Assembly (NCBI GenBank): GCA_023245355.1
Contig: JAHFKN010000002.1
Coordinates: 8,460 to 72,459, forward strand
Origin: Candidatus Gottesmanbacteria bacterium
GTDB taxonomy: Bacteria; Patescibacteriota; Microgenomatia; UBA10105; UBA927
Length of the DNA stretch: 64,000 nt
Reading direction: 5' to 3'
Program-made: the position numbers and the translations under genes
Part shown: positions 30,081 to 63,872 of the stretch, one piece after another
How the letters are laid out: the number at the start of each line of letters is the position of its first letter
Numbering within the stretch: position 1 is the stretch's first letter
Notes under the pieces: model-generated
Told to the model about the DNA's origin: nothing
Database searches by the model: none
Seen by the model: only the letters and a program-made list of their open reading frames with translations

Positions 30081-30515
30081 TTACCAATCTCTTCCTCCGC
30101 GGTCATCTCCGCCGCCTCGTCTGTCGTAGCCGCCACGACCTCCGCGGTCATCGCGCCTACCACCTCCAAATCCACCTCTTCCTCCGCCTCCCCGATTACC
30201 ACCGCCGTATCCACCGCCTCCGCCACCCCTATATCCACCGCCACTTCCACCGCGATTTTCACGGGGAGCCATAGGTTTGGCTTCGTTGACGACGATTGAA
30301 CGACCATCGAGTTGCGTTCCGTTCAAATCCTGGATAGCTTTCGCTGCGTCATCGGGATTGCTCATTTCAACAAATCCGAATCCGCGGGATTTACCGGTAA
30401 ACTTATCGGTAATCACCTGAGCACTCGCGACAGGACCTACCTGCGCAAAATGATTCTTAAGCGTATCTTCTGTCGTATCCCAGGAAAGTCCCCCAACAAA
30501 TAATTTAGCTGCCAT
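30081..30515 (-). CDS. RRM-domain glycine-rich RNA-binding protein
   Basis: RNP2 KLFVGGL, RNP1 RGFGFVEM, and a C-terminal GGGYRGG/RGG low-complexity tail. Confidence 0.85.
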   Translation of the reverse strand: MAAKLFVGGLSWDTTEDTLKNHFAQVGPVASAQVITDKFTGKSRGFGFVEMSNPDDAAKAIQDLNGTQLDGRSIVVNEAKPMAPRENRGGSGGGYRGGGGGGYGGGNRGGGGRGGFGGGRRDDRGGRGGYDRRGGGDDRGGRDW

Positions 30516-48892: not shown

Positions 48893-50140
48893 TTACTCAC
48901 CGATTTTTTTCACCCATGCCTTAAATTGCTCACCCCGGTCAGCATAATCCCGGAACATATTGTAACTTGCACTTGCAGGGGATAGGAGACATATGTTCCC
49001 TTTCTTAGTATTGGCATATGCTACATGAACCGCTTTTTCCATCGATTCCACATGGTATACCTGAGTTTGTTTTTTGGTGCGTTCCGATAAAGCATCCCAA
49101 ATCCGCTTCCCCGTATCAGGAAACAGAATAAGCGTTCCCACCGGATGGGTATCCAAATAGGCACCAAGCACGGAATAATCCAAATGTCTGTCGTAACCGC
49201 CGGCAATCAATGTAGAAACCTCCGGTCCTAACGCCGCTAAGGCATGAATCGTAGCCTGCGGAATCGTTGCCAATGAATCATTGTAAAACCGGATGCCATG
49301 ATATTCACCGGAAAACTCGAGCCGATGGGGAAGAGGCGTAAATGTTGCAAGCTGTCTGTCGATTATCTCCTGAGAAACACCGGTTACCCGTGCAACCATA
49401 ACTGCCGCGGCAATGTTCTCTGCATTCCCTAATATGTGAGAAGCAGAAACGCCGGACTCATTCACATGAAACGGTTTGTGTACGGCTTTTCCCATTCGTG
49501 CTACCGCAGCTACTTCCGGGTGATCCGGGTTATATACCATGACATCTGACCCCGTCTGATACCTGATAATATTTGATTTTGCCGATACATACGACGCAAA
49601 ATCCCGGTAGTAATCCATATGCTCTGACACGATGCCCAACAGGACGGCGATATGCGGACTATACCGCACATCGGAAAGCTGATGACTGGAAAGTTCGATA
49701 ACAAATACCGTATCGGGATTCTCACTGTCTAACTCATCTAACATGGGGGTCCCGATATTACCTACCAACCGCACGTCCGCATAGTGCTTAGTAAGTATGT
49801 GTGCAATAAGACTGCTTGTCGTGCTTTTCCCCTTGGTTCCGGTAACTCCGACGGTCATTCCTTTTACAAGAGAAAAAAAGATATTCGTAGCCGACGTAAC
49901 ATGCCCGCCTTTTTGAACATACTCCTGCATCTTTCCGGAATACGGGGACACACCGGGACTCCGTATAACGGAATCGTAGTCACCAAGATGCTCAAGATAT
50001 GCGTCCCCGTCTGTTTTTTTGTCCGCTATAGCAATATGAAGTGACGGATAATGCTTTTTGAGCCACGCATGAACGCTTTTTCCCTCCCGTCCGTACCCGA
50101 GAATTAAAACGGAATTACCCCGAATTTCATTTGTACGCAT
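48893..50140 (-). CDS. murD: UDP-N-acetylmuramoylalanine--D-glutamate ligase
   Basis: [12 protein letters not shown]-terminal Rossmann, Mur ligase P-loop [21 protein letters not shown]. Start placed at MRTNEI. Confidence 0.7.
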
Positions 50141-51545
50141 ATAAGTTGCCCGATGCAGATGCTGACTGCCATGTACTGCGAAGCAAAGACACGTGATCAG
50201 GAGGCAGGTTATACGTATCGCCCCAATCATCCATGACCAGTCTACGAAGTTCCGTAACATCCTGGGGGGACAGTCCTAAATCACTTTTTATTTTCAGCAG
50301 CCCTTCGGGAACTTCACTCTTCTCTTTGAGATATTTCCCGATGGTCAGTATCACGGCAAGTTTTGCTTCATCGCGCGTTCCGACGCATTCAAACGGCTTG
50401 ACGGGTGTCAAACCGACTAATGAGCGGATGTGCTCTATAATCTGAGGATTCGCAAATAAATCAGCGCCGAAACTTATCATCATCTGCTCACGCGACAGGT
50501 ACGGGGACAGACAAAGATAGGTGAATGCGCATTTGGCACACGTCCCGCACCAGACACCGGTCTTACTCCCGACGTTACAACTTCTGAATGTGGTGAAAAA
50601 CCGGGGGTACATCGAAAAAATCAATCCTATCTGCAAATCATTGAGCGGCCGGAGTATGCTGAAATAATTGGCGGCGCCATCAAAAAAATTTGTGCAATAC
50701 TGCCGGAACATCGACTCGAACTGGAAGCTTTTGGAGTACTGATGATTCACCTCCATGCCGCGATACACGACATTTCCCTCATTTGCGCTCTTTTCATTGG
50801 AAACAATGACATGTTCATTGCCATAAAGAACCGCAACCAATATACCTAAGAATGCCAGATACGCCGAAAAGGGTGTGTGCCCGTTTAAGTACCCCGAACG
50901 GTTCAGTTCCATCAGCATCGGATCGATAACCCGATTGATAACCAGCGGAGGCGGAAATCCCGCTTCACGGATATTATCCAGAGCTGCCTGCGTGGGATTC
51001 AGAACCATGGTTTGGAGCGTTCTATCGCTCTGTTTCATCATTCCTAATGTCACTGCAGAATCTTTCCCGCCACCAACGAGGACCAAATCATTTGCAGGCA
51101 TACCGCTGCCCGGTTTCCGTTCCCGCATATTCCCGGCGGCATTGTTGGGAACAGACGCCCCGGGGGAGCATGTAATCCGGAGAAAATCCTTTACCGTAAA
51201 ATCTATCTGATTCTGGTAATAAAATTCTCCCAAACCGTGGATAAATATATCGTACCAGAATCTGATTTGCTCGCCGTTAAGAACTCCTGCCTCAATCACT
51301 AGCTCCTTGGGACACGCAAGCTTCCAATAGCTTATCGCCTCGACAAGACCGAGATGAAACACATACGGCATGAATCTTTCTTCGTCGATGCTTCCGGGAT
51401 AGGGGATGGTAACCACCGAACGGAGTCTGACGTCAGGCTCCAGGAGGAATTCGTACGTCAATTCGATTACATCGCCTCGCTGCAAAACGCCCGCGCGCTT
51501 GTATATCAGTCTGGGATGCTTGAGCCGAAGCTGTTCAAACGTCAT
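50127..51545 (-). CDS. PP-loop ATPase with QueC-like C-terminal Zn motif (N-acetyl-sugar amidotransferase-like)
   Basis: LVGGGKDSAVT PP-loop in the middle of the protein. C-terminal CNVGSKTGVWCGTCAKC. Confidence 0.5.
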   Translation of the reverse strand: MTFEQLRLKHPRLIYKRAGVLQRGDVIELTYEFLLEPDVRLRSVVTIPYPGSIDEERFMPYVFHLGLVEAISYWKLACPKELVIEAGVLNGEQIRFWYDIFIHGLGEFYYQNQIDFTVKDFLRITCSPGASVPNNAAGNMRERKPGSGMPANDLVLVGGGKDSAVTLGMMKQSDRTLQTMVLNPTQAALDNIREAGFPPPLVINRVIDPMLMELNRSGYLNGHTPFSAYLAFLGILVAVLYGNEHVIVSNEKSANEGNVVYRGMEVNHQYSKSFQFESMFRQYCTNFFDGAANYFSILRPLNDLQIGLIFSMYPRFFTTFRSCNVGSKTGVWCGTCAKCAFTYLCLSPYLSREQMMISFGADLFANPQIIEHIRSLVGLTPVKPFECVGTRDEAKLAVILTIGKYLKEKSEVPEGLLKIKSDLGLSPQDVTELRRLVMDDWGDTYNLPPDHVSLLRSTWQSASASGNLYAYK

Positions 51546-51564: not shown

Positions 51565-53172
51565 TTACGGGGCGACCTCCTGCCAGATGACCGATAAGTC
51601 TTTCATCGTGTCCGGCATGGTCAGAAGAAGCTGCGGATCATACGTAAAAAGCTCTGCAGACGCATTTATGTTGCCGCCGTATGCATCCAGATCCCGCTGA
51701 AGAAGAAAATTGTCAGCGACGAATACGCCGTTTCCGACAAAACGCGCGGTGAGCGCATTGATGCTGGTGCCCGTCTGAATTAGCCCTGACTCATCCGCCT
51801 TGGTGGCTATATAGACTCCCTCTACAACCGGCGTCGTTGATGACCATGTTGTTCCGACGGTGTCTGCGACCGTGATGGTTCCGTTCACGATAAATGCGAT
51901 GAACCCGTTGCCGGTGATATTTATCCTCCCTCCGATTGTAAGATTCCCGTCCACAAGAATCACGACACGTTCATTGGCCCCGATATTCCAGTTCCCGCTC
52001 GTCGTCATGTTACCGACCACATAATACGGACTATCACAGCTTGCCGCCGTACAATTAGACGCCGGCTTGGTAACCGCAGTAAGATTATCAAACGGAGCTG
52101 ATGTTGTCGGCGTAGTGGGAGACCCGAACCGCCTCAGGAAATAATCATAGTAATTCACGGATGTCCTGCCCGCATTCACCTGCCAATTAGTACTGGAAAC
52201 GAGCGTCGCACCTTCGGAAAACGGATCGGAATCGAAATCATACAGCGTCCCGTACGACAATACCCCCGGATATCCGTTTGCTGAATCGGTAACGAACGTC
52301 CGCGGAAGGACTGCGGGAACGAATGACCGGACATTGCCCGACGCATATACATCTCCGCCCTCCGCTTGTACCCATGCCGTTCCCAATGTATATCCTATGT
52401 CCCACCGGAGCGTTTGGTTTGCGGCCAATGTACGCGACAACCCTTGACCCGTCAGTCCCGTCGTTACATTGGTCCAACACGCCCGTGCGTATGCCCAGTC
52501 TGCTGTGGGGGGAATAATATCCATCGTATAGGAACCGGTCACAATATTGGCAAATTGCTCATACACTGCTCCGACCTGAAACTGCGGAATAGGCTGACTT
52601 GCTGACGACGGAGTAAATCCGATAGACGTACCGGTAATATCTAAGTCTGTTGTCGGCACTGCGCGGATAGCTGCACATGACGTATCCGCAGGATCCACCC
52701 GCACTGCCCGCGCCTGAATCGTTCCGACCGGAACGGAGGTGGCCGTCGGTGCAGGAGGCACGGTAGGCTCTGACGGAGGTGTGTTTGTGGCTCCGCCACC
52801 CGGACCCGTAGGGGTACAACAATACTGTGTTTGCCCTAATTGCGGATTATTATTACACACACGGAATTGCCAACAAGCGTCACATGCACCCCACGAACCC
52901 CACCCGGTCGTACAGGAGGATTGATTCGTTGAACAGGTAAAACCACAGAATCCGGTATTATGATTACAAAACGGAGTACACGTCGTCGCTATCCCCGGAA
53001 TACCGTTATCGGCACACAATCCATTCGTACATACGTCACCGCAGGTGCCCGAAGAACAAAGCGGCATCGTCGGGAAGGGAGTACCTCCATACACACCGCC
53101 CTGTGCAGACACTGAAGATCGAAGACACGTCAACACCAACACGACAAGGACAATCCGCTGAAAAAGCCTCAT
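51565..53172 (-). CDS. Secreted Cys-rich protein with Pro/Thr linker and beta-rich C-terminal domain
   Basis: Signal peptide MRLFQRIVLVVLVLTCLRSSVSA. About 30 Cys in the first 120 mature residues, then a PT-rich linker, then repetitive N/T/G-rich beta-strand-like sequence. Confidence 0.5.
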   Translation of the reverse strand: MRLFQRIVLVVLVLTCLRSSVSAQGGVYGGTPFPTMPLCSSGTCGDVCTNGLCADNGIPGIATTCTPFCNHNTGFCGFTCSTNQSSCTTGWGSWGACDACWQFRVCNNNPQLGQTQYCCTPTGPGGGATNTPPSEPTVPPAPTATSVPVGTIQARAVRVDPADTSCAAIRAVPTTDLDITGTSIGFTPSSASQPIPQFQVGAVYEQFANIVTGSYTMDIIPPTADWAYARACWTNVTTGLTGQGLSRTLAANQTLRWDIGYTLGTAWVQAEGGDVYASGNVRSFVPAVLPRTFVTDSANGYPGVLSYGTLYDFDSDPFSEGATLVSSTNWQVNAGRTSVNYYDYFLRRFGSPTTPTTSAPFDNLTAVTKPASNCTAASCDSPYYVVGNMTTSGNWNIGANERVVILVDGNLTIGGRINITGNGFIAFIVNGTITVADTVGTTWSSTTPVVEGVYIATKADESGLIQTGTSINALTARFVGNGVFVADNFLLQRDLDAYGGNINASAELFTYDPQLLLTMPDTMKDLSVIWQEVAP

Positions 53173-53225: not shown

Positions 53226-55553
53226 CTAGCGAATGGTAATCAATGAGGGATATATTAATGTTTGTGCCTCATCTGGGAAAAAATACGTAGTCCATGCAGG
53301 ATCATTTTTATCCTGGAACCGGAAACTCAATGACGATGATGCCGGGGAAAGCATTTTAAATATACCGTCTAACCAATACTTATAATATCTTTCCTCAACA
53401 GCAGGCTTGTTTTTGTTATTAGGAGCTAACAGGGAACCAAAATCTCTATCAACCTGTTTTGATAACGCTTCTAACGACGGTTGAGTGACGTTAAGCGTCA
53501 CAATGGGACCTAGCGTATCGAAAAATCCTTCTTGTGCCCTTACGATAGGTAGTACTTCCAGCCTTGTTCCAGGAGTCGCAGCCTGAGCAAGAAGACGATC
53601 GTATGCATTTCTATTTCCCTCATCTCCCATAATTTCAGGACCACTTGCCGCAAACATTATCTTCCATTCGTCCCCTTTAGGATTACGCGGATTGGCTGGG
53701 TCTAACCACTTCGTTGGAAAAAATTCATATTGAGTTCCATTTGGACTAATCATTGCAAACCACGCATCTATGATCTGAACCGGACTATTTGCTTTGGTTC
53801 TTCCTGGGAATCCCATCGCCTGATTCCGTAAATACGCAAAGCTGGACAACTCACCCGTGTTTGCATTCATCAAAAATTGTTGGAACGCAATTTCCGGTCC
53901 CGGCGTATCTTTCCACCAGGAAACGGCTTCCTCAGAAAATGCTTCAGGAAACTCTACTATTGTCACCCGCAGAGGAATTTCCGCTTTATCATAGGGGATA
54001 ATCACCGGCTTGTGGATATCCGGACTAATCTCCACGGCAAACCATGCTTTTTCCTCCTGTATCCAGTACAGTTTTTTGCCGTCTACTGTCGTCATGACCG
54101 GCGTATTACCATATTCATTTTTGCTGGCGAGATCTTCATGCAGCGTATTCGGATCAACCTGCATAGTTTCCGTCGTCGGCTGTCCCTGAGCATTTAATAC
54201 CTGTACGCTCGTACTGAATTTACCCTCCGCCTCAGCGGTGATAGACGCTTCGAGTCCGCTATGGATTTTCATCGCAGCCGCCTGCTCAGGCGCAAGCCTG
54301 AGAGACTCAATCGAAAACTGTTGCACGATCGCAGGATTTTCCACAAACTGTGCGTCACTTCCCGGCGCGTAGATTACGACGGGCATATGCTCTGCATCGG
54401 CGACACCCCATACGGGATATTCCCCTTTATATCCGCCGATGATACTGTCAGCGGAATACCCGCTCGGAAGGGCAACCCAGATATATTTGGGCGCTTCAGT
54501 CGGGGCAAAATCAAACCATTCCGCATTAGGGTGGTAGGAAACGTTGTCCGCTCCCGCTGCGATGACGGCTACCTCAGTGACTCCGCCGTTTACTCTCGTA
54601 AGCAGCACAAAGTTTTTGCTGTAGTCAGCTGACCAGAATACCTTGGCGCCCTGTTCTCCTGTTACTTTTGCCCCAATTGCCTCTACATTCTTGCTGAACG
54701 CATCCAGCGCATATTCAGGCAACTTCAACGGATTTGCCGCTGTCAGCTGATCCGGTGTCGCACCGGCAGAAAATGAAACCTGGTCAAATATACCGGCATC
54801 ATGGAAATCAGGGTGCGAAGCCAGATCAATCGGCGGAGGAGGAGTTTCCGTCTGAAAGCCGGGCGGGGGAGTCAGAGTTTCCGTGGCTATTGCAGGTGCC
54901 GTTATGGCAGGAGCCGGCCGGGTTTCCGTCACAATGACGGGTGAAGTTGCTGATGGAACAGCGCAGCCGGCTATAAGAGCTGACAAGCTCGCTAGCAGCA
55001 GTGCTCTGCGTTTATTAAACTTTCCGAACGGGATAAGCGCTGCATATGCAACCTCATCAAACGTGCCAAACGGCAATTGCGGCTCGTTTCTGGGGGTTTC
55101 CGTCTGAGCTGTAATGGTGGCCATCTGCACGCGGGTATTGAGCGCTTCAACTGCACGGTTTTCTCTGGCGGCACTGCCGGCCTGCGCTACCCATTGCTCA
55201 CTTTGTCGGGCTTTATGATTTGTTTTGGTCGCTTGGCGCTCTCTGTGGGAATTCGTCCGTGAAACGGGCGCCTGGTCAAAGCCGCCCTGCGGCTGTCCGA
55301 ATGAACTTGAAGGAATTGCTGCTATAGACTTGCCGTGATACACAACCTCGACATGGGAATGCCTGTCTGCGTGGCTGCCGAATCCTAAATCACCGGTAAA
55401 TGTCTGAGAAATAGCCGGCCTGTTGGAAAATATTTCAGCGACTTTTGAATTGTTTACTTCAATAGCGCGCCCTGCGCCCCAAATTGTCGCACCGAGCAAG
55501 ATACCATGCCGTACAGCCCTTCCAAGAGGATACCTCTCTTTATGTTGCTGCAT
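53226..55553 (-). CDS. Large hypothetical lipoprotein/secreted protein
   Basis: Internal lipoprotein-type signal (KFNKRRALLLASLSALIAGC) about 190 aa into the ORF. The true start may be the internal MATITAQ at 55124. Confidence 0.5.
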   Translation of the reverse strand: MQQHKERYPLGRAVRHGILLGATIWGAGRAIEVNNSKVAEIFSNRPAISQTFTGDLGFGSHADRHSHVEVVYHGKSIAAIPSSSFGQPQGGFDQAPVSRTNSHRERQATKTNHKARQSEQWVAQAGSAARENRAVEALNTRVQMATITAQTETPRNEPQLPFGTFDEVAYAALIPFGKFNKRRALLLASLSALIAGCAVPSATSPVIVTETRPAPAITAPAIATETLTPPPGFQTETPPPPIDLASHPDFHDAGIFDQVSFSAGATPDQLTAANPLKLPEYALDAFSKNVEAIGAKVTGEQGAKVFWSADYSKNFVLLTRVNGGVTEVAVIAAGADNVSYHPNAEWFDFAPTEAPKYIWVALPSGYSADSIIGGYKGEYPVWGVADAEHMPVVIYAPGSDAQFVENPAIVQQFSIESLRLAPEQAAAMKIHSGLEASITAEAEGKFSTSVQVLNAQGQPTTETMQVDPNTLHEDLASKNEYGNTPVMTTVDGKKLYWIQEEKAWFAVEISPDIHKPVIIPYDKAEIPLRVTIVEFPEAFSEEAVSWWKDTPGPEIAFQQFLMNANTGELSSFAYLRNQAMGFPGRTKANSPVQIIDAWFAMISPNGTQYEFFPTKWLDPANPRNPKGDEWKIMFAASGPEIMGDEGNRNAYDRLLAQAATPGTRLEVLPIVRAQEGFFDTLGPIVTLNVTQPSLEALSKQVDRDFGSLLAPNNKNKPAVEERYYKYWLDGIFKMLSPASSSLSFRFQDKNDPAWTTYFFPDEAQTLIYPSLITIR

Positions 55554-55740: not shown

Positions 55741-56343
55741 TCAACCCAACAGTTCTTTCCATAACAAACCGAGGATAAAGAATATAAAACGGAAAACTAA
55801 ACGGGCGTCTCCCTGCACGGATTTTTGCTTCGCGTAGGCCACATCGCTTTTCATCCACCGGGTAAAGTTTTTATGATATTTGCCTGTCAATATAGCGGGG
55901 GAGATAACACCGGGAAGAATTGCGTGGCGGGCCTGCATCCACGGCTGCAGTGCTTTTGCTTCGGAAACCGGTAACGGCCTGGGCCCTATAAACGCCATCT
56001 CGCCGCGGAAAATATTATAAAGCTGCGGCAGTTCATCCAATCCCGTGTGACTCAAAAATTTTCCGATCCCGGCAAACCGGGGATCATTATGGATCTTAAA
56101 TACCGGGCCATCAGACTCATTTTTTCGGAGCAGGCGGCGCCTCTCATTCTCAGCACCCGTACGCATCGTCCGGAATTTATATATAAAAAACGGTACGCCA
56201 TATCGGCCGATCCGCTGCTGTACATACAGAAACGGCATCCCATCAAACACGACAATCAGCGCTCCGATCAGTGCAAAAACCGGCAGACACAAAATAATGA
56301 ATACAAGCCCCGCAACGCGAATTAACATACGGAATAATTCCAC
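55741..56343 (-). CDS. Small PglC/WbaP-like phosphoglycosyl transferase (Bac_transf family)
   Basis: One TM plus a catalytic domain: GPRPLPVSE...PGVISPAILTG and DELPQLYNIFRGEMAFIGPRP. Confidence 0.8.
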   Translation of the reverse strand: MELFRMLIRVAGLVFIILCLPVFALIGALIVVFDGMPFLYVQQRIGRYGVPFFIYKFRTMRTGAENERRRLLRKNESDGPVFKIHNDPRFAGIGKFLSHTGLDELPQLYNIFRGEMAFIGPRPLPVSEAKALQPWMQARHAILPGVISPAILTGKYHKNFTRWMKSDVAYAKQKSVQGDARLVFRFIFFILGLLWKELLG

Positions 56344-56443: not shown

Positions 56444-57445
56444 ATGATCTACTACTCAAATTCGCCGCTTGAAACGCCGCATATGACGTTCATCGGCCGG
56501 TGGTCTCCGTTTCACAACGGACATAAAGCAATCATCACCAAAAAAATTACGGAAAATCCGCTCCTTCCCGTGCTCATTCTCGTGCGCCACACGCTCACGG
56601 ATCAATATACGGCATCGGCACGGGCTATGTATATCAAACAGTGGATGACAGATCAACATATCAAGGGAACCATCATGATCATCCCGAACGTAGAAGGCGT
56701 GTATTGGGGACGGGGAGTCGGCTACAAAACTGAGCCAGTATCCGTAGATGAAGCCATCACATCCATATCCGGAACGGACATCCGCCGCAGAATGCAGGAC
56801 AAAAAATCTTCCTGGCATAATCTGGTTGCCGTCCCGGAATCTGCGTATTTATTGACCCCCGCCGTTTCATCCATCGTAGAACAGGGACTTGTCGTGTGGC
56901 TGACGGGGTGCCCTTCAAGCGGAAAAACAACGATCGCACGTGCATTTATACACCACGTTGCAGCAACCTACCCGCATCTTAAAACACAGCTTCTTGACGG
57001 AGATGACATGCGTGCTACTCCGGTTGCTGCCGGGGTAGGATTCAGCAAAAAAGACCGGGCAGATCATATCCTGCGGATGGCGTATATCGCAAAAATGTTT
57101 GCCGATCACGGCATTTTGGTCGTATGCGCTTTCGTTTCTCCCGATCGCCGCATACGTATGAAAGCCAAAAAAATCATCGGAAAAAACCGGTATATAGAAG
57201 TGTATGTCCGGGCTTCCAAATCTACCCGGATGAAGCGGGACACCAAGGGCATGTATAAACAAGCAGCGAAAGGCGCTTTACAAAACTTCACCGGATACAA
57301 CGCATTCTATGAAGCCCCTAAAAAACCGGACGTTCTCTGTGATACGGACACGCAGGATGTTTCTTCCTGCGTTACCGCCGTTTCATCCCGTGTGTTTTCC
57401 CGGTCAACTTCGCATACCTCTGATTCGGCCGGCCGGAATAAGTGA
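56444..57445 (+). CDS. Bifunctional cytidylyltransferase-like nucleotidyltransferase / adenylyl-sulfate (APS) kinase fusion
   Basis: N-terminal FIGRWSPFHNGH (HxGH) and ISGTDIRRRM (ISxTxIR). C-terminal VVWLTGCPSSGKTTIA, LDGDDMR, GFSKKDRADHILRMAYIAKMF, VVCAFVSPDRRIR, typical of CysC. Confidence 0.75.
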   Translation: MIYYSNSPLETPHMTFIGRWSPFHNGHKAIITKKITENPLLPVLILVRHTLTDQYTASARAMYIKQWMTDQHIKGTIMIIPNVEGVYWGRGVGYKTEPVSVDEAITSISGTDIRRRMQDKKSSWHNLVAVPESAYLLTPAVSSIVEQGLVVWLTGCPSSGKTTIARAFIHHVAATYPHLKTQLLDGDDMRATPVAAGVGFSKKDRADHILRMAYIAKMFADHGILVVCAFVSPDRRIRMKAKKIIGKNRYIEVYVRASKSTRMKRDTKGMYKQAAKGALQNFTGYNAFYEAPKKPDVLCDTDTQDVSSCVTAVSSRVFSRSTSHTSDSAGRNK

Positions 57446-58360
57446 ATACACTGCGTACCCCAGCAAATATCCCAGCCTGACACCTGACCTGTATACGGCA
57501 GCCAGTACGGAAAAAGGTCTTTTGCCGTACAAATTACCGGAATGCGCACTGTTGCCAGCCGCATGGTTCAGACCGCGTGTCAGAAGATAATACGATAGCG
57601 TAAATTCCCGGTCAGAAAAATACAGACGCTGGAACAGTGCCGCCGCTCTTCCATAGCTGTATGCCGCCTTCATTTCTTCCGTAAAAACTACCTGATGCGT
57701 CGTGTGCATCACTTTTACCGACGGGGCAAACAGCAGGGGAATATGACGCGCAATACACCGGTATGCCAGATCATCCTGCTCCCCGATAAACGGGAAAACT
57801 TCAGCGTTAAACGGGCCGTCGAGTTTGGAAAACACGGACCGGTAAGAAAACATATTTCCGGCTAACAGTGTCACGAGGCGGGTGCCCGGCGCTGAGTTCT
57901 GCCCCATGCCGGATGCCGCCGCGTCGCGGGCGAATGTTTCGCGTTTAAGGTCTTCCAATTCGCCCCGGCGGGTATACCGCTGTGTTGCGTGCCCCTGATA
58001 CACCCCGCGGGGATACTTTTTTTTGTCATTTAGGAGAGTGAGCTTAATATGCAAAACCCAGTCGGAAGCCACAAAGCTGTCGTCATCGAGGAATGCCACA
58101 CCCTCTTTTGTCGCATGCCGGAACCCCGTATTCCGGGCCCAGGAAGCGCCTTTTCTGGGTTCGTTAAGATACATGACGGATTTGTTCATATTGGCTCCTG
58201 CCGCGTCATATCTTTCGGCTGAATTTATCACGATGATGACTTCATCGCGTTCGGTAATCTGAGGCAGAAGATGAGAAAGGCAAACGGATAATGATTCCGG
58301 CCGCTTATTGGTAGGAATAATCACGGAAACTGACATTGTCTCTGTACGAAGACGCTGCAT
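57404..58360 (-). CDS. Glycosyltransferase family 2
   Basis: MSVSVIIPTNKRPESLSVCL and the DDD region FLDDDSF. The 3' end overlaps the convergent APS-kinase gene by 42 nt. Confidence 0.75.
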   Translation of the reverse strand: MQRLRTETMSVSVIIPTNKRPESLSVCLSHLLPQITERDEVIIVINSAERYDAAGANMNKSVMYLNEPRKGASWARNTGFRHATKEGVAFLDDDSFVASDWVLHIKLTLLNDKKKYPRGVYQGHATQRYTRRGELEDLKRETFARDAAASGMGQNSAPGTRLVTLLAGNMFSYRSVFSKLDGPFNAEVFPFIGEQDDLAYRCIARHIPLLFAPSVKVMHTTHQVVFTEEMKAAYSYGRAAALFQRLYFSDREFTLSYYLLTRGLNHAAGNSAHSGNLYGKRPFSVLAAVYRSGVRLGYLLGYAVYSLIPAGRIRGMRS

Positions 58361-58380
58361 GGTTTGATTATGAACGCAAA

Positions 58381-58647
58381 TTAGCTATTCACGCGAATCA
58401 GAAGACCGTCACGGATATATTGTGTGACAAAGTCGCGCACGTCATGCTCAGCCTGAGAGACGGGAATTCCGTACTTAGTAGCAATTTGACTGATAAGCCG
58501 GTCTATAACAACGGGTTTTTTTGTCCGCTGCCAGATGTCACCGGCGGTCTGGTTCAGCTGACGGAGATATTTCCTGTTTTTTTCCAGAAGAACCCATGAG
58601 GAACCGATGCGGCGGCTGACAACGTGGGGACTCTGTTGAACGATCAT
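58381..58647 (-). CDS. PqqD-family protein (RiPP recognition element-like)
   Basis: WVLLEKNRKYLRQLNQTAGDIWQ...RLISQIATKYGIPVSQAEHDVRDFVTQYIRDGLL matches the PqqD/RRE winged-helix pattern. Confidence 0.7.
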   Translation of the reverse strand: MIVQQSPHVVSRRIGSSWVLLEKNRKYLRQLNQTAGDIWQRTKKPVVIDRLISQIATKYGIPVSQAEHDVRDFVTQYIRDGLLIRVNS

Positions 58648-58659
58648 GAACGCTGTAGA

Positions 58660-58749
58660 TTATGTCTCAACCAACATTACGGTTATCTTGCTTCGGGTAT
58701 CAGAAGGCTTCTGATATTTGACCACTTTCACCTGAGATTTTTTCTTCAT
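58660..58749 (-). CDS. Candidate 29-aa Lys-rich small peptide ORF (MKKKSQVKVVKYQKPSDTRSKITVMLVET)
   Basis: Not in the supplied ORF track because it is under 60 aa. ATG is preceded by GAGGGGG about 10 nt upstream. Stop lies 12 nt before the PqqD start. It sits between the S26-like peptidase and PqqD on the same strand. Confidence 0.25.
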   Translation of the reverse strand: MKKKSQVKVVKYQKPSDTRSKITVMLVET

Positions 58750-58844
58750 AACACAAATACCCCCTCTTCATAAGAGAGCGTAACAAAACCATCACGGAAT
58801 TGTCAAGCTAATACGCACATATTTCTCGTTGCGTTTTGGCCGGT

Positions 58845-59279
58845 TCAGATCAGGACTTTTCCGATAAAATTGCCCTGTCTCACCCTGTATGTATCGGGTG
58901 TCATAAACTTGTCACCCTTGGTTACGACTGCCTTTTGTCCCTTTACCAGTAACACTTTTATAACCCTGTGAACGATTATTTTCCGCCGCTTGCGGACTAC
59001 GTACGCGATAATGTCGTTTGTCTGTATAACATCAAACGGAACGCGGAAAATCCTGACTTCCTGAGTCACGCGTATAGCAGGCTCCATGCTGTCTGAAGCT
59101 GCCGTTGCCGTAAACGACTGGCCCATGGGCAGCAGTTTTGCCAATTGGATGATACTGTCCTGCGAATGCTGTAAGATGATATCGCGCTTGACTGGCGTCC
59201 CGTGCATATACAATCGTATCGTATCAAATAGCCGCTCACCATGAATACCTCGCAGGATCCCGTATACATACTGCTGCAT
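58845..59279 (-). CDS. S24/S26-family (signal-peptidase-like) serine peptidase, apparently soluble
   Basis: SDSMEP (GDSMxP Ser box), RVIK Lys box region, and TKGDKFMTPDTY resembling the GDNRxxSxDSR box. No N-terminal TM. The start probably lies internal (59207 or 59126) because 59279 overlaps the divergent sulfotransferase start. Confidence 0.55.
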   Translation of the reverse strand: MQQYVYGILRGIHGERLFDTIRLYMHGTPVKRDIILQHSQDSIIQLAKLLPMGQSFTATAASDSMEPAIRVTQEVRIFRVPFDVIQTNDIIAYVVRKRRKIIVHRVIKVLLVKGQKAVVTKGDKFMTPDTYRVRQGNFIGKVLI

Positions 59280-60053
59280 ATTCCCAAATGCGCAGGATTT
59301 TCCATGTCATCCCATATGCTTACGTTTTTTCATGCCGACAAATACTGCGGCCTCTACACGTCTATGGGTCCGCTTCTAGAGAACAGATCCATGATAGAGG
59401 CATATCTGACACACCTCCCGGGCAAAAAACTCAATTCACTCCGCGTTATAGCCGGGCACGGCGCATATTACGGTATTCATACCTATCTGCAAAGACCGGT
59501 GCGGTACGTGGTATTTTTGCGTCATCCGTTTCACCGGTCGCGTTCGCACTATGCGCATATGGCACAAAATACGCATGCCGGCCTGCCGGCGGACATCCCG
59601 GTACTGGATAAGGGCGGGGTACAAATTCCGTTTGCGGAATGGATGAGACTTCGAAGCATCACTCATGATTTTATGACACGGTTTTTGTATGAAAAATTCT
59701 TTCCGTCTGCAATACGCGGAGAAGTGACCGACCAGCATCTTACAAACGTGCTGGGAGTATTGAATACGTTTTATTTTGTGGGGCTGACAGAGCACCAGAC
59801 GCATCATCGGTTTTTATATGATTGCTTGGGGCTGCCGGTATATGCGCCGCGCGAAAATGTCACGGATACACGCTTTGTACCTCCCGCCGTACCGGACAGC
59901 TCCATCAGCCGGTATCTTCTGCAGGACAGCCGATTATATAATTATGCCCGGGCAATGCCGCGCCCTGCATTATCACGGGTGAAGCGGGCAGACCTATTGA
60001 TGAAATACATAAGAGACCGCGCGCGGTTTAGCATCCGGGGCAACAGGATATGA
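59241..60053 (+). CDS. Sulfotransferase-family protein (PAPS-dependent)
   Basis: 5'-PSB motif ILLHIPKCAGFS and 3'-PB motif FLRHPFHRSRSHY. Confidence 0.7.
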   Translation: MNTSQDPVYILLHIPKCAGFSMSSHMLTFFHADKYCGLYTSMGPLLENRSMIEAYLTHLPGKKLNSLRVIAGHGAYYGIHTYLQRPVRYVVFLRHPFHRSRSHYAHMAQNTHAGLPADIPVLDKGGVQIPFAEWMRLRSITHDFMTRFLYEKFFPSAIRGEVTDQHLTNVLGVLNTFYFVGLTEHQTHHRFLYDCLGLPVYAPRENVTDTRFVPPAVPDSSISRYLLQDSRLYNYARAMPRPALSRVKRADLLMKYIRDRARFSIRGNRI

Positions 60054-60967
60054 AACCTACTCATACCGGTTTTTATAAACATCTTGTCCGTCAGCACGAA
60101 GACATTTCTCTTATACGGAGCACGGAAACAATGATCCGGTCACTCCGGAAGGACGTATTCCGCCTGCCTGACGCGGGAGGGTCTGCAGTACTCCTCCTGT
60201 CCGGCGGCCTGGATTCCGTGATTGCGTGGGAAATGCTGCTGGGGCAGTATCGCCTTCACGTATATCCGCTGGTAGTGTCACACGGTTTGTTGGATCCTCA
60301 AGACGAAGTAGTCCGGAAATTCCGTACGGTATTCCGGAAAAAATATGCTGACAGGTACCACGAACCGTATATCGTCCGCGCCCCGGCTTCACACGGAAAC
60401 TTTCATACAAAAATTCTCAACGACGCGCCTCCTGACATGCTTCTTAAATATTTTGACCCGGCCAATCAGACGGTAAAAGTTCCGTTTTGGGGAGCGAATG
60501 TGTTTACGGCATATCGGGGATATATGTATCTTCAATATCTGACGTTTACGCTGCCATCCCCGGTAACAACCATCATATACGGCGCGACGGCAGATGACGG
60601 ATTGTTTATACCCAGCCAGACGTACGCATTCATGCGGCTTACCATGCTCATGCTGATGAAATTTTCCGGCAATCCCGCTCTGCAATTCGGATCTGTTTTT
60701 TATGAGGAATCTTTACGTAATTTCATGACCAAGGCGGACGTGCTTTTATACGGACACCGTGCCGCGTTACCGCTTTTTAAAACATACAGCTGCGACAGGC
60801 GGGGGATATTCCATTGCGGCACGTGCCTGTCCTGCAGGAGCAGGCAATACTGTTTTGACCGGGCAGGGGTTACCGATCAAACCCTGTATACGGACGGCGA
60901 GTCACTTAAGAAACGGCTGAAACAAGTATGGCAACAAACGATAAAAATCATAAAACCCGAACTATGA
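60050..60967 (+). CDS. QueC/ExsB-family PP-loop ATPase (sugar amidotransferase WbpG/PseA-like)
   Basis: LLLSGGLDSVIA PP-loop. C-terminal Zn motif YSCDRRGIFHCGTCLSCRSRQYCF. Confidence 0.7.
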   Translation: MKPTHTGFYKHLVRQHEDISLIRSTETMIRSLRKDVFRLPDAGGSAVLLLSGGLDSVIAWEMLLGQYRLHVYPLVVSHGLLDPQDEVVRKFRTVFRKKYADRYHEPYIVRAPASHGNFHTKILNDAPPDMLLKYFDPANQTVKVPFWGANVFTAYRGYMYLQYLTFTLPSPVTTIIYGATADDGLFIPSQTYAFMRLTMLMLMKFSGNPALQFGSVFYEESLRNFMTKADVLLYGHRAALPLFKTYSCDRRGIFHCGTCLSCRSRQYCFDRAGVTDQTLYTDGESLKKRLKQVWQQTIKIIKPEL

Positions 60968-61710
60968 GCATACTCAAATCCCTACTCCGCAAACCGTACT
61001 GGTTTATTCATGACGCTGCCGGCGCACTCCGGGAGTGGTTCCTCGACTTTATTCCCGTATATCCGACGTATCATCAGTCGCTGCTCAAACGGGCTCTCAG
61101 CCGTACCCTTATACAACAATACAGCGCAGACGAAGGACAGAACGTAAATTTCACCCAGTATTTTCTGGGGTTCGGACTCATACATTATGCAATCATCCGT
61201 AATTACAAACCGGACAACATGTTGTGTATCGGCTCACGAAAGGGTTTCGTTCCGGCCGTCCTTGCTCTTGCATGCCGCGACAACGGGAAGGGTCATGTCG
61301 ATTTTGTGGATGCGGGATATGACGAGGACAAGCCGGATAAACACTGGGGCGGGGTCGGTTTTTGGAAAAAGCATGATCCGCAATCACATTTTGCCAAACT
61401 CGGTGTAGCTGAATTCATTTCGACATATATCATGACAACGGATGCGTTTTCCCGCTCGCACGTTAAAAAACAATACCAATACATATATATCGACGGCGAT
61501 CATTCGTACGCCGGCGTACTACACGACTACACCGTTTTCTGGCCGCGTCTGCAAAAAGGGGGAATGATGGTCTTTCACGATATTGTTGCCCGGGGCTATC
61601 TTGATAAGGGATTATTCGGCGTCCGGAAGTTGTGGAACAAACTAAAAACAAAACACGCAATTCAGTTTCCGTACCCGAAGGAATCCGGATTAGGAATCCT
61701 GCAAAAATAA
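60964..61710 (+). CDS. TylF/CmcI-family class I SAM-dependent O-methyltransferase
   Basis: IYIDGDHSYAGVLHD...GGMMVFHD. Alternative start at 60928. Confidence 0.6.
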   Translation: MSILKSLLRKPYWFIHDAAGALREWFLDFIPVYPTYHQSLLKRALSRTLIQQYSADEGQNVNFTQYFLGFGLIHYAIIRNYKPDNMLCIGSRKGFVPAVLALACRDNGKGHVDFVDAGYDEDKPDKHWGGVGFWKKHDPQSHFAKLGVAEFISTYIMTTDAFSRSHVKKQYQYIYIDGDHSYAGVLHDYTVFWPRLQKGGMMVFHDIVARGYLDKGLFGVRKLWNKLKTKHAIQFPYPKESGLGILQK

Positions 61711-61727
61711 TACCAGAAATATCCTTT

Positions 61728-63050
61728 ATGAAAAACATATTTGTACGCATGCGTAATCTCTGGCGGTATCCCTCATGGCTGTACCGAATGTCAGCGGAAA
61801 AATTTCCTGACGTTTCTTCAGGTAAACTGCGGGTGCTCGCGCGACTTCATGCCGTCAAAAACGAGCTCGGGGAACGCTCAGTAGTAAACAATCTCGGAGC
61901 ACTCTACACCCTGCCGCATCCGCTGGCCGCAAAAACATATGCATCATTTCTGAATCAGAATCCCAACCACCTCGGTCACTGGGCAGACAGACTGCCGCAG
62001 GAAGGCGCGACCATACAACTGGAATATGAAGTAATCCGCGCCATGATTGATCTGTACAGGGCAAATGGGAAAAACCTCACCGGGTATATAACATCTGGCG
62101 CGACCGAGGGAAATATATTCTCTGTCTGGCTCGGTAAAACATATCTGTCTCAATTTTCACCGCCCGAAAAAATCCGTTTATTGATGACAAGCCTGACTCA
62201 TTATTCCGTGAGGAAAGCGGCGGATATCTGCGGCGTGACGTCTGATACCATAGGATTACACACAACGACATGGGCGATGGACCCAGACAGCTTTCTTGAA
62301 ACTGTCCGGCGCCTGCACAAGAAGGGGATTACGGGCATATTATTGCCGCTTACACTCGGATATACATCGACAGGCACGTCCGACGACATCGCCGTCATAT
62401 CGCAGGCAGTAACCCGGCTTCAGAAAGAACTGCCCCGTCTCAGGATATTTGTCTGGATTGATGCGGCCACACAGGGATTAGTCACGCCGTTTCTATCGGA
62501 TTTTCGGCCGTTTCGTTATCCCCATATACAAACGGTCGTAGTGGATTTTCATAAATACGGACTTGTCCCGTATTCAGCGGGGACACTTCTCTACAGACGC
62601 GCCATGCAAACCCTGATTGAACGCCCCATAGAGTACCTGCGCGAAACCGATGCAACACTTTCCGGTTCCCGCCCGGGAGTCACGGCCGCGTCGATTTGGT
62701 CCATGATTCATATCATGGGAAAACAAGGCTACCGGCGCATCATAACGACACAGATGAGCAATAAAAAATATTTTATCCGTGAACTGTTACGTGTGCTGCC
62801 GGAGACAGAGGTTATTACCGGTGCAGACGGCATAAGCTGCGGTATACTATTCCGATCACTTCCCGCCGGAAGACTCCCGAAACACATAGAAGAGAAGTAC
62901 TGGTTTCATGCGGGAACGTCCTCAATCTTTTTTTACCCTGACGGATACAAAAACCTTATACTATACAAGTGTTTTTTCCTCCCTCACATGACAAAAAAAA
63001 TCATTGCCGAATTCATACGGGACCTGGAAAAATCGTCCGGACAACCGTAA
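61728..63050 (+). CDS. Group II PLP-dependent decarboxylase
   Basis: PLP-lysine region VVDFHKYGLVPYSAGTLLYR and the fold-type I body. Start at MKNIFV; the ORF opens at 61632, overlapping the upstream gene. Confidence 0.7.
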   Translation: MKNIFVRMRNLWRYPSWLYRMSAEKFPDVSSGKLRVLARLHAVKNELGERSVVNNLGALYTLPHPLAAKTYASFLNQNPNHLGHWADRLPQEGATIQLEYEVIRAMIDLYRANGKNLTGYITSGATEGNIFSVWLGKTYLSQFSPPEKIRLLMTSLTHYSVRKAADICGVTSDTIGLHTTTWAMDPDSFLETVRRLHKKGITGILLPLTLGYTSTGTSDDIAVISQAVTRLQKELPRLRIFVWIDAATQGLVTPFLSDFRPFRYPHIQTVVVDFHKYGLVPYSAGTLLYRRAMQTLIERPIEYLRETDATLSGSRPGVTAASIWSMIHIMGKQGYRRIITTQMSNKKYFIRELLRVLPETEVITGADGISCGILFRSLPAGRLPKHIEEKYWFHAGTSSIFFYPDGYKNLILYKCFFLPHMTKKIIAEFIRDLEKSSGQP

Positions 63051-63071: not shown

Positions 63072-63872
63072 ATGCTCATATGCGGCATGTCGTATAATAC
63101 CCCCATGAATCATGAACTCCGCCACTATATTGAATTACTAACCAGCATGACTCACAAGGAACTGACCGCCCGGTATAAGCATACGGTGTTCGGATTTCTC
63201 TGGATCTTTATCAATCCGCTGCTGCAGATGATTGTTATCGGATTTATCTTTCCGTTTTTTATTAAAGAAGCAATTCCGCATTATTATCTGTATCTGTTTA
63301 TAGGACTTCTGACATGGAATTTTTTCTCGTTATCTTTATCCAAGTCGTGTGCTTCAATCGTCAACGAACGGTCACTTATCAAAAAAGCGGCATTTCCCCG
63401 GTCGGTCATTCCGATATCCATAATTTTTTCTAACCTGACTAACTATCTTATCGCGTTTGGCTTGTTTCTCATACCAATTCTTCTGGTAAACACACTTACC
63501 ATATATTCCGTATTTTCATTTTTCGGCGGACTCATCATGCTTGTCACGTTTATTATAGGAATCAGCCTGCTTACAAGTGCCCTGAATGTCCGCTTCCGCG
63601 ATATAAACTTTTTTGTGCAGGCTATGCTTATTATTTGGTTCTATGCAACTCCCATCATCTATTCCCTGTCCCAGATACCCGACCGGCTATCCTGGATATG
63701 GCGGCTTAACCCCCTGACCTCGATCCTGCAGCTGATGCAGCACGCGCTCATCGGATCTGCATTACCGGACATTACCATGCTTACGTCAAACAGCCTTATC
63801 ATTGCAGCCATCACTATTTTCGGCATCCTGATTTTCCGCGAAGAAAGCAAAAATTTTGACGACTGGCTATGA
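63072..63872 (+). CDS. ABC-2 type polysaccharide/teichoic-acid exporter permease (Wzm/TagG-like)
   Basis: ELTARYKHTVFGFLWIFINPLLQM N-terminal signature and six TM helices. Confidence 0.75.
   Translation: MLICGMSYNTPMNHELRHYIELLTSMTHKELTARYKHTVFGFLWIFINPLLQMIVIGFIFPFFIKEAIPHYYLYLFIGLLTWNFFSLSLSKSCASIVNERSLIKKAAFPRSVIPISIIFSNLTNYLIAFGLFLIPILLVNTLTIYSVFSFFGGLIMLVTFIIGISLLTSALNVRFRDINFFVQAMLIIWFYATPIIYSLSQIPDRLSWIWRLNPLTSILQLMQHALIGSALPDITMLTSNSLIIAAITIFGILIFREESKNFDDWL

Follow-up and report, generated by a model that had tools for sequence, protein, structure and literature searches.

How does a genomic island that encodes an APS kinase and a sulfotransferase obtain its APS when no ATP sulfurylase is in view? 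This question is raised by a locus in the 64-kb window (the whole stretch of DNA analysed, 64,000 nucleotides), where a single gene joins a small nucleotidyltransferase (NT) domain to an APS kinase domain. The initial annotation proposed that the small domain might be a minimal sulfate adenylyltransferase, making the fusion protein a minimal PAPS synthase, and we evaluated this idea using profile searches, structure prediction and comparative genomics.

A fusion gene with a regular APS kinase domain

The fusion gene, a candidate minimal PAPS synthase, was found exactly as first described, with an open reading frame of 333 aa at 56444..57445 on the forward strand. Public data contain an identical 333-aa protein (P0001) together with about 80 clusters of full-length orthologues. 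Residues 146-314 (56879..57385, forward strand) match PF01583 (E = 3.6e-43; 147.7 bits versus a cutoff of 21.1) and score above the equivalog cutoff of TIGR00455 (162.4 versus 138.7 bits). APS kinases of known structure can be aligned over the full length of this half (for example, 2yvu, E = 1.2e-39, query residues 12-181), which retains intact motifs throughout, including the P-loop (GCPSSGKT, residues 155-162), LDGD, GFS..DR, SP, RD.KG.Y and FTG..YE.P. Homology shows the C-terminal domain to be a regular APS kinase, predicted to make PAPS by phosphorylating APS at its 3'-OH, and the original assignment to canonical CysC stands.

The NT domain is a truncated relative of archaeal-type NMNAT

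The NT domain occupies residues 12-146 (56477..56881, forward strand) and is therefore ~135 aa long, not ~170 aa as first estimated. Both nucleotidyltransferase motifs that had been claimed, HxGH and ISxTxIR, are present: HNGH at residues 24-27 (56513..56524, forward strand) within GRWSPFHNGH, and ISGTDIRRR at residues 108-116, whose SGTDIR (SxTxxR) nucleotide-binding core at residues 109-114 (56768..56785, forward strand) aligns with SGTEIRRRM of NMNAT. Conservation counts over 375 domain instances, expressed relative to ungapped copies, revealed near-invariance of H24 (362/364), H27 (364/364), S109 (365/367) and R114 (364/366), and equally of a family-specific G-R-G-V-G-Y loop at residues 89-94 (56708..56725, forward strand; G89 368/370, R90 366/368, G93 368/370). 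Overall, invariance of the HxGH, GR and SxTxxR residues is 99% or higher, and the retention of all catalytic residues across the 375 copies argues that the domain is enzymatically active and not a relic.

When the family profile was compared with the PDB, the nearest relative was archaeal NMNAT (1f9a, E = 1.5e-14) followed by PPAT, and the GRxxPxHxGH and SxTxxR motifs of archaeal-type NMNAT both occur in the NT domain. An AF2 model of the domain (pLDDT 90.8, with coil at residues 82-102) likewise returned 1f9a (TM 0.66) as its sole Foldseek match below 1e-3. Residues 77-109 of 1f9a correspond to only 8 profile positions, with the GR-VGY loop in their place, which amounts to a net loss of ~25 residues after strand 3 relative to NMNAT. 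The stretch between strand 3 and strand 5 of NMNAT presumably shapes the NMN pocket, and we take the lost segment to be where NMN binds; the G-R-G-V-G-Y loop may instead form a binding site for an anionic substrate.

The route by which sulfate chemistry had first been suggested, through the superfamily shared with ATP sulfurylase, did not hold up. The Sat-type match to PF01747 reached 16.0 bits versus a cutoff of 24.3 and covered residues 22-70 only, although rare NT-domain relatives narrowly exceed this cutoff (for example, P0261 at 26.0). No Sat chain in the PDB was recovered by the NT family profile at E ≤ 10, neither the GRDHAG motif nor a PUA_2 domain was found in the fusion protein and the HNGH motif is of the GRxxPxHxGH NMNAT type, not the Sat type. 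Comparison with a real Sat by hhalign gave 27% probability and left GR-VGY unaligned with the GRDHAG of Sat, so a sulfate site in the NT domain is a conjecture. The match to the cytidylyltransferase model PF01467 was also below its cutoff (16.7 versus 21 bits). By sequence and by fold, the NT domain is a truncated archaeal-type NMNAT relative and not an ATP sulfurylase.

Canonical sulfurylases are scarce at loci with the NT domain

The window is clear of Sat, CysD and CysN, in agreement with the initial reading: real Sat, E. coli CysD and E. coli CysN produced no tblastn match across the 64 kb, and Pfam scans found PF01747, PF14306, PF01507 and GTP_EFTU absent from all its other ORFs. Sat probes likewise had no match in a total of 2.2 Mb, made up of the window and 254 loci. 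CysDN was detected at one of the 254 loci (L018), where cysDN sits next door and where the NT domain is one of only two copies with R90 replaced by His. Weighing against a minimal PAPS synthase are the cysDN genes at L018, the sat/cysN genes encoded by some Patescibacteria (PMC12239599) and the island itself, in which no sulfate transporter was seen.

The NT domain is linked to APS kinase and to PAPS-cycle genes

We surveyed the genomic context of the NT domain at 107 species-genome loci and 113 viral-contig loci, together ~220 bacterial, archaeal and viral loci from many phyla. Linkage to APS kinase was observed at 94 of the 107 species-genome loci (61 fused, 31 adjacent and 2 near) and at 104 of the 113 viral loci, or about 90% overall. 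Both fusion orders exist (NT-APSK and APSK-NT), and the NT domain is often a separate gene, with stand-alone copies adjoining stand-alone APS kinase genes. Phages, CPR and DPANN are among the carriers of the module, and a small cassette that is self-sufficient would suit them.

Other recurrent neighbors also belong to PAPS metabolism. In a census of 300 neighboring ORFs, Sulfotransfer_3 (22) and Sulfotransfer_1 (12, with possible overlap between the two) were exceeded only by APS kinase (30). Sulfotransferases were present at 43 of the 113 viral loci, and 10 of 10 sampled passed Pfam cutoffs. An archaeal locus has a CysQ-like gene (Inositol_P) that overlaps its fusion gene, and one family member is fused to a DHHA1 domain; PAP phosphatase activity is proven for DHH/DHHA1 enzymes (PMC10322725).

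Viral copies have features of their own. In most of them, and in cultured phages (DLP6 gp227 and Salvo gp32), the partner is a shortened APSK-like kinase without the lid, and DNA methylases are often immediate neighbors and the commonest non-kinase ones. In phage loci the flanking positions are mostly taken by a sulfotransferase, a DNA methylase and a gene resembling APS kinase, and not by glycan genes. Because the kinase is shortened and the neighbors are often DNA methylases, at least this subfamily might do something else.

A probable divergent sulfotransferase in a glycan island

The sulfotransferase said to follow the fusion gene corresponds to a 270-aa ORF at 59241..60053 on the forward strand, which probably encodes a divergent PAPS-dependent sulfotransferase (PF03567 / PF00685 / PF13469) and is a likely consumer of PAPS. 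It is conserved in a syntenic locus (L015) and scores 21.8 bits against Sulfotransfer_2 versus a cutoff of 22, while an orthologue at 83% identity (P0267) passes at 24.0 and another (P0268) passes Sulfotransfer_1 at 23.3. Its sole PDB profile match, to heparan-sulfate 6-O-sulfotransferase, is weak (E = 0.43), and the alignment runs through the 5'-PSB and 3'-PB regions. These PAPS-binding motifs, HIPKCAGFS for the 5'-PSB (PKxxG-S/T) and LRHPFHRSRSHY for the 3'-PB (RxPxxRxxS), are conserved in four orthologues and align to the HS6ST motifs. An AF2 model of the protein, built from 4 sequences only, had a pLDDT of 35.9.

Genes for glycan synthesis and export surround this pair. On the reverse strand, a polyprenyl-phosphate phosphoglycosyl transferase of the Bac_transf family, assigned to glycan initiation (55741..56343; PF02397, E = 3.9e-44), lies beside the fusion gene, as it does at loci L001, L003 and L015. 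A GT2 glycosyltransferase (57404..58360, reverse strand; PF00535, E = 5.4e-15) is convergent with the fusion gene and overlaps it by 42 nt, an arrangement identical in L015, and is followed by a PqqD-like small protein whose position is also kept there (58381..58647, reverse strand; PF05402, E = 2.6e-11) and by an archaeal-type signal peptidase I-like protein (58845..59279, reverse strand; TIGR02228, 63.9 bits versus 51.85). Downstream of the sulfotransferase, here and in L015, is a QueC-like PP-loop ATPase (60050..60967, forward strand; PF06508, E = 4.6e-8), possibly a carboxylate-activating enzyme of glycan modification. The remaining forward-strand genes encode a Methyltransf_24 methyltransferase (60928..61710; PF13578, E = 6.8e-18) also found in L001 and L015, an MfnA/HDC-like PLP-dependent decarboxylase (61632..63050; PF00282, E = 5.9e-17; TIGR03812, E = 1.2e-40 and below cutoff) and a Wzm-type ABC-2 permease for glycan export (63072..63872; PF01061, E = 8.2e-18). 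Overall, the whole island is syntenic in L015 at ~63% identity, and the fusion gene is flanked by Wzm and Wzt in L001, L003 and L015.

A probable minimal PAPS synthase and its alternatives

We consider it probable, with moderate confidence, that an NMNAT-derived mini sulfate adenylyltransferase and an APS kinase here form a minimal PAPS synthase that feeds sulfation of an exported glycan. The fusion and neighborhood evidence from ~220 loci suggests that the NT domain catalyzes the initial reaction of sulfate activation, as an enzyme of very small size. This hypothesis is considerably strengthened by the linkage to APS kinase in both fusion orders, by the PAPS-cycle partners (sulfotransferases, the CysQ-like gene and DHHA1) and by the scarcity of Sat (0/254) and CysDN (1/254); what fell away from the original proposal is Sat-like ancestry, and the sulfate adenylylation proposed for the NT domain concerns mechanism, not family membership. 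No earlier description of such a minimal PAPS synthase was found in the literature.

In the proposed mechanism, a domain descended from archaeal-type NMNAT, which kept the ATP-binding and catalytic GRxxPxHxGH and SxTxxR motifs and acquired the invariant G-R-x-V-G-Y loop in place of the lost residues, would adenylylate sulfate (ATP + sulfate -> APS + PPi). The APS kinase domain would then convert APS to PAPS at the 3'-OH, and fusion would pull the unfavorable first step forward because APS is consumed at once. The neighboring sulfotransferase would use this PAPS to sulfate a glycan that may be started on polyprenyl phosphate by Bac_transf, extended by GT2 and decorated further via the QueC-like, methyltransferase and decarboxylase genes. 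A Wzm/Wzt ABC transporter would then export this glycan from a cell that appears to belong to the Patescibacteria (CPR).

An unlikely alternative is that the NT domain adenylylates another small acceptor and the kinase phosphorylates the 3'-OH of the ADP-linked product, following the logic of PPAT and dephospho-CoA kinase to yield a different 3'-phospho-adenylyl donor or cofactor. The order of nearest relatives (NMNAT, then PPAT) fits this reading, hhalign against Sat revealed no sulfate site and NadR, which is among the profile and Foldseek matches, offers an earlier example of an NMNAT joined with a P-loop kinase; the shortened kinase and methylase neighbors of the viral and cultured-phage copies point the same way. 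However, the kinase in the window exceeds the APS kinase equivalog cutoff with all motifs kept, the recurrent partners belong to the PAPS cycle and the net deletion of roughly 25 residues leaves room for a small acceptor only.

It is very unlikely that the NT domain is the NMN/NaMN adenylyltransferase of the organism, serving NAD synthesis and fused to APS kinase without pathway meaning. Its best sequence and fold matches are indeed archaeal NMNAT, NadM and NadR, but the NCBIfam NMNAT models match weakly and far under their cutoffs (TIGR01527 / NF002243; 39.9 versus 127 and 35.4 versus 181), the 1f9a segment 77-109 is nearly gone and linkage to APS kinase at about 90% of loci, in both orders, would be unexpected for a NAD enzyme. 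Slighter still is the chance of a non-catalytic regulatory or scaffolding appendage, for which inactive sulfurylase-like domains on the APS kinases of Thiobacillus denitrificans and Entamoeba histolytica offer a model (PMC13213808; 3cr8, itself among the PDB matches of the APS kinase half); those domains are full-size Sat folds, unlike the NT domain, which is often encoded by a separate gene and has near-invariant catalytic motifs. Finally, a TagD/CCT-like cytidylyltransferase that would supply the glycan with a CDP- or ADP-alcohol, the alternative raised initially, is scarcely tenable despite the HxGH fold, the weak PF01467 match and the location in a glycan island, as no TagD/CCT chain was recovered by profile search of the PDB at E ≤ 10 or in the Foldseek top 50, and the conserved partners, phage loci included, are APS kinase and sulfotransferases, not glycan genes.

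Comparison with known systems

The CysDN complex performs the same first reaction as that proposed for the NT domain, and in E. coli cysC adjoins cysDN, but in that complex the GTPase CysN drives CysD, a PP-loop ATPase, whereas neither CysD homology nor a GTPase partner was found at the fusion locus. The APS kinases of T. denitrificans (3cr8) and E. histolytica (EhAPSK; PMC13213808) likewise carry an extra nucleotidyltransferase-fold domain, although these are Sat folds of full length that no longer bind substrate, in contrast to the small, NMNAT-like NT domain with its catalytic residues kept.

Archaeal-type NMNATs (1f9a from M. jannaschii and 1ej2 from M. thermautotrophicum; NadM and NadR) share with the NT domain the aligned GRxxPFHxGH and SGTxxRRRM motifs. 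They differ in being ~25 residues longer after strand 3, where the NT domain has its invariant GR-VGY loop, and in the genome the NT domain is accompanied by APS kinase and sulfotransferases instead of NAD genes. The design of an HxGH adenylyltransferase joined to a P-loop kinase of one and the same short pathway is shared with NadR (NMNAT and ribosylnicotinamide kinase) and eukaryotic CoA synthase (PPAT and dephospho-CoA kinase), but their kinases are RNK or CoaE, while that of the fusion protein is placed in the APS kinase family by a curated cutoff.

The bifunctional PAPS synthases (metazoan PAPSS1/2, APSK-Sat; Aquifex and Roseobacter-type Sat-APSK, such as 2gks and WP_011655495) also combine APS kinase with a HIGH-motif nucleotidyltransferase-fold domain, occur in both fusion orders (PAPSS versus fungal/bacterial Sat-APSK) and carry out the chemistry proposed for the fusion protein, from sulfate through APS to PAPS. 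Unlike them, the fusion protein fails PF01747, has neither QxRN nor GRDHAG and is closest to NMNAT. Its partner domain is ~135 aa compared with ~390 aa (PUA_2 plus the Sat catalytic domain), giving NT/APSK fusions of ~300-330 aa where PAPS synthases span 550-630 aa.

A nucleotidyltransferase domain fused to APS kinase

The ORF at 56444-57445 on the forward strand encodes a 333-aa protein, identical to one on record (P0001), in which a small nucleotidyltransferase (NT) domain (residues 12-146) precedes an APS kinase (residues 146-314). The fusion recognized in the initial annotation was borne out by this ORF and by its kinase half, which scored above the curated cutoff of TIGR00455 (162.4 versus 138.7 bits), matched PF01583 at E = 3.6e-43, aligned over its whole length with APS kinases of known structure (2yvu, E = 1.2e-39; also 2gks and PAPSS1) and kept all signature motifs. 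Homology shows a C-terminal domain that would turn APS into PAPS. Approximately 80 clusters of 300-330-aa proteins cover >90% of the protein at 50-65% identity and, where named at all, these relatives (one from a Patescibacteria group bacterium) are called only 'adenylyl-sulfate kinase', after the kinase half. Several proteins with the kinase-NT arrangement (P0085, P0090, P0096, P0099, P0101 and P0110) have a hydrophobic, signal-peptide-like or anchor-like N terminus, which is unusual for a cytosolic enzyme that uses ATP.

The NT domain is an NMNAT relative with a putatively remodelled acceptor site

The NT domain (residues ~12-146) carries the motifs GRWSPFHNGH and ISGTDIRRRM. Searching the PDB with a 49-sequence family profile identified archaeal-type NMNATs as its nearest relatives (1f9a, E = 1.5e-14; NadM, 7e-9), followed by NadR, with PPAT at 3e-4. 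A confident AF2 model (pLDDT 90.8) agreed with this kinship; the archaeal NMNAT 1f9a was the sole solved structure below E = 1e-3 in a fold search (TM 0.66), and Foldseek of viral structures (BFVD) gave no match under the same threshold. The domain is not a member of the Sat family, with a score of 16.0 against the Sat model PF01747 (cutoff, 24.3), no ATP sulfurylase among PDB matches to the profile even at E ≤ 10 and an hhalign probability of 27% with a real Sat catalytic domain, confined to the shared ISGTxxRRR region. A conserved G-R-x-V-G-Y loop (GR-VGY; residues 89-94) was also considered as the counterpart of the GRDHAG loop of Sat, but the two were not aligned by hhalign (27%) and the comparison was dropped as evidence.

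In the HMMER alignment, residues 77-109 of 1f9a, a stretch that we take to contribute the NMN/nicotinamide pocket of NMNAT, correspond to only eight profile positions, and G89-R90-x-V92-G93-Y94 occupies their place. Across 375 copies, the loop (R90, 366/368; G89, 368/370) shows no more variation than the catalytic residues (H27, 364/364; R19, 362/363; S109, 365/367; R114, 364/366). Because the catalytic residues are kept and the 1f9a segment is replaced by an invariant loop, the NT domain appears to be an adenylyltransferase whose catalytic machinery is intact but whose acceptor site has been rebuilt, is smaller and contains a new invariant arginine.

Sulfate is the acceptor that we favour. 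The same site could serve another small acceptor, which is the strongest competing reading. That the domain is a true NMNAT would agree with its nearest structural relatives and is less probable, given that it misses curated NMNAT cutoffs widely (39.9 versus 127) and has the pocket segment replaced; by sequence, it is not an ordinary NMNAT. A regulatory appendage fits poorly with catalytic residues that are almost never substituted. The cytidylyltransferase alternative raised in the initial annotation is disfavoured, as neither TagD nor CCT was among the PDB matches to the profile at E ≤ 10.

Linkage to APS kinase across genomes and viruses

Fusions of the NT domain with APS kinase occur in either order. 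An exhaustive profile search returned 924 representative clusters at E ≤ 1e-10, the best 145 of which were approximately half stand-alone domains (120-160 aa), the remainder being APS kinase fusions on either side. Where both genes stand alone, they overlap or abut. We also searched with a DNA pattern for F-I-G-R-W-x-P-x-H-x-G-H (~40 bits; about one chance match expected by our own calculation), which had matches in at least 119 species genomes and, among viral contigs, in at least 120. Among the matches listed, APS kinase was linked in 94 of 107 genome loci with a callable ORF (61 fused, 31 adjacent and 2 near) and in 104 of 113 viral loci, mostly as a neighbouring gene. Hosts among these matches included bacteria (Patescibacteria, Omnitrophota, Planctomycetota, Marinimicrobia, Acidobacteriota, Chlamydiae and Bacteroidota) and archaea (DPANN, Methanosarcinales and the cultured haloarchaea Natrialba asiatica, Haladaptatus, Natrinema and Halalkalicoccus). 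DUF2061 (PF09834), a small membrane protein, recurs as a third partner, encoded by its own gene following the NT gene (L011, 6422-6646), fused to APS kinase (L012, 4037-4780) or fused to the NT domain (P0177).

In viruses, the NT domain (IMG/VR contigs L005/L006, L009 and L138-L257; at least 120 contigs) is mostly a separate gene beside one for a short (~145 aa) APS-kinase-like protein. Among immediate neighbours other than the kinase, N6/N4 DNA methylases were commonest (21/150), and no sulfotransferase family was in the top 25 of this immediate-neighbour census; a wider local search found sulfotransferases two to three genes away in 43 of 113 viral loci among the matches listed, and all ten of those sampled passed Pfam cutoffs. 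The majority viral subfamily and copies from cultured phages pair the NT domain with a shortened, lid-less APS-kinase-like kinase, and this subfamily may differ in function from the window type. The cultured-phage copies, annotated as 'kinase' or hypothetical, include ~245-aa fusions of a lid-less APS-kinase-like P-loop and the NT domain in Stenotrophomonas phage DLP6 (gp227; L013, 4995-5726; local E = 1e-32) and Xylella phage Salvo (gp32 'kinase'; L014, 4001-4747; local E = 7e-27), and such phages offer tractable test systems. Matches of the same length and coverage were obtained by tblastn in phages Sano and Bacata, Xanthomonas phages AhaSv and Seregon, Stenotrophomonas phage Suzuki and Clavibacter phage 33. 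In Salvo, a gene annotated 'cysteine dioxygenase' lies ~3.5 kb upstream of gp32.

Canonical sulfurylases are rarely found beside the module

Scanning every remaining ORF of the 64-kb window with Pfam did not find Sat, CysD or CysN, nor did tblastn with real Sat, CysD and CysN sequences match the window, in agreement with the initial observation that no ATP sulfurylase was in view. Sat probes, one a real Roseobacter Sat and the other a segment of yeast MET3, were validated by matching annotated sat genes at 63% identity and had no match in the window or in the 254 loci (2.2 Mb in total, ~8-20 kb around each module match listed). Over the same loci, CysD and CysN occurred in only one, an Acidobacteriota MAG (L018, 5895-6881), where cysD and cysN adjoin the fusion gene. 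This copy (YGHDVGY) and P0199 are the only two copies in which R90 is His, and the NT domain of L018 may be degenerating where a canonical sulfurylase is present. Some Patescibacteria do encode sat/cysN (PMC12239599).

Sulfotransferases and the surrounding island

The ORF at 59241-60053 encodes a probable, divergent 270-aa sulfotransferase that scored 21.8 bits against Sulfotransfer_2, just below the cutoff of 22; its orthologues pass (P0267, 24.0; P0268, 23.3 against Sulfotransfer_1). Its 5'-PSB and 3'-PB motifs are conserved and aligned, though weakly, to heparan-sulfate 6-O-sulfotransferase (E = 0.43); plain phmmer against the PDB gave no match, and the AF2 model was unusable (pLDDT 36). 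The fusion gene's neighbours encode a Bac_transf phosphoglycosyl transferase, GT2, PqqD-like and archaeal-type signal-peptidase-like proteins, a QueC-like PP-loop ATPase, Methyltransf_24, a PLP decarboxylase and a Wzm permease. Fusion genes amid Wzm/Wzt, Bac_transf, glycosyltransferase and sulfotransferase genes were found at three Patescibacteria loci, one of which (L015) shows gene-by-gene synteny with the window.

Sulfotransferases also accompany the module elsewhere: back-to-back with a kinase-NT gene on a T4-like phage contig, overlapping the fusion gene on a large viral-looking contig, immediately upstream in Natrialba asiatica and, on an archaeal contig, together with a second APS kinase and a CysQ-like Inositol_P gene that overlaps the fusion gene. 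A Pfam census of 300 flanking ORFs counted 30 APS kinases, 22 Sulfotransfer_3 and 12 Sulfotransfer_1 matches (the last two may overlap, as one protein can match both models), with Inositol_P also present. One NT-family member carries a fused DHHA1 domain, and PAP phosphatase activity has been demonstrated for DHH/DHHA1 enzymes, B. subtilis NrnA among them (PMC10322725).

Other flanking genes recurred. Arginine-deiminase/DDAH-superfamily (amidinotransferase-like) genes were unexpectedly common (11 of 300 flanking ORFs in the L017-L135 census), and radical-SAM/B12-binding proteins accounted for five ORFs of the same census. In cultured haloarchaea, a conserved, often plasmid-borne cluster combines a sulfotransferase, kinase-NT, YqcI/YcgG-family and ThiS-like genes (L078, 3084-6976, Natrialba asiatica DSM 12278; also L058, L075 and L092) and is possibly a small-molecule sulfation cluster. 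On a Gottesmanbacteria chromosome (L003, 7449-9955), an NMT1-type ABC importer of the nitrate/sulfonate/taurine family (binding protein, ATPase and permease) immediately precedes the fusion gene and might import the sulfur source.

Within the window, the QueC-like PP-loop ATPase, Methyltransf_24 and PLP-dependent decarboxylase genes (60050-63050, forward strand) lie downstream of the sulfotransferase; L015 keeps the first two, with a spermine-synthase-like gene instead of the decarboxylase, and the set suggests that an amine may be made and then ligated to a glycan carboxylate. The genome region that holds the sulfation island also has a gene for a 511-aa sulfatase-family protein (27243-28778, reverse strand; PF00884, E = 8.6e-23) with an SGSH_C-like C terminus. 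Also on the reverse strand are a MurD-like ligase (48893-50260) and a MurL-like protein (50127-51545; 59% identical to an L001 gene annotated MurL_N/MurL_epimerase_C), a pair likewise upstream of the fusion gene in L001/L002, and two large predicted proteins without a Pfam match, of 535 aa (51565-53172; signal peptide and Cys-rich N-terminal region) and 775 aa (53226-55553), at whose position L001, L003 and L015 have unannotated genes of similar size. Other window genes encode an ATP-dependent DNA ligase, DUF4012 and a bacterial RRM_1 RNA-binding protein with a long Gly/Arg-rich tail (30081-30515, reverse strand). Together with MurD/MurL and the most similar loci, these genes suggest that the window belongs to a Patescibacteria genome.

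A candidate third class of ATP sulfurylase

Read from sequence, the module probably works by the NT domain forming APS and the kinase making PAPS, for sulfation of an exported glycan. The NT domain would adenylylate sulfate, supplying APS, by means of an NMNAT-type ATP site and a putative small anion site formed from the GR-VGY loop, and the PAPS would be consumed by the adjacent sulfotransferase acting on a polyprenol-linked glycan that Wzm/Wzt would export. Sulfate adenylylation is strongly unfavourable and needs pull by APS kinase and pyrophosphatase; an APS kinase that is fused to the NT domain, or tightly coupled to it in an operon, suits this need.

If correct, this would be a third structural solution to sulfate activation, in ~135 residues, and the smallest PAPS synthase. 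Genomes with the module, which would at present be scored as unable to activate sulfate because the genes are named only 'adenylyl-sulfate kinase', would be re-read; sulfation by reduced-genome organisms and phages would be accounted for, with hints of unrecognised sulfated surface glycans in Patescibacteria and of phages that encode a sulfation function of their own. With its ~300 aa, so compact a PAPS synthase could also serve enzymatic or in-cell PAPS regeneration in biotechnology. A full-text literature search found no account of the NT domain, its APS kinase fusion or DUF2061.

To our knowledge, enzymes activate sulfate in two ways, Sat and CysDN. We lean slightly towards regarding the ~135-aa NMNAT-derived domain as a third, independently evolved class that, with APS kinase as an either-order fusion or gene pair, would form the smallest known PAPS-synthesis cassette and an autonomous source of activated sulfate for sulfotransferases of CPR/DPANN ultra-small cells, many marine and soil phyla, haloarchaea and numerous phages. 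For comparison, the partner of canonical cysC is an adjacent cysDN in E. coli and a fused Sat on a Roseobacter plasmid.
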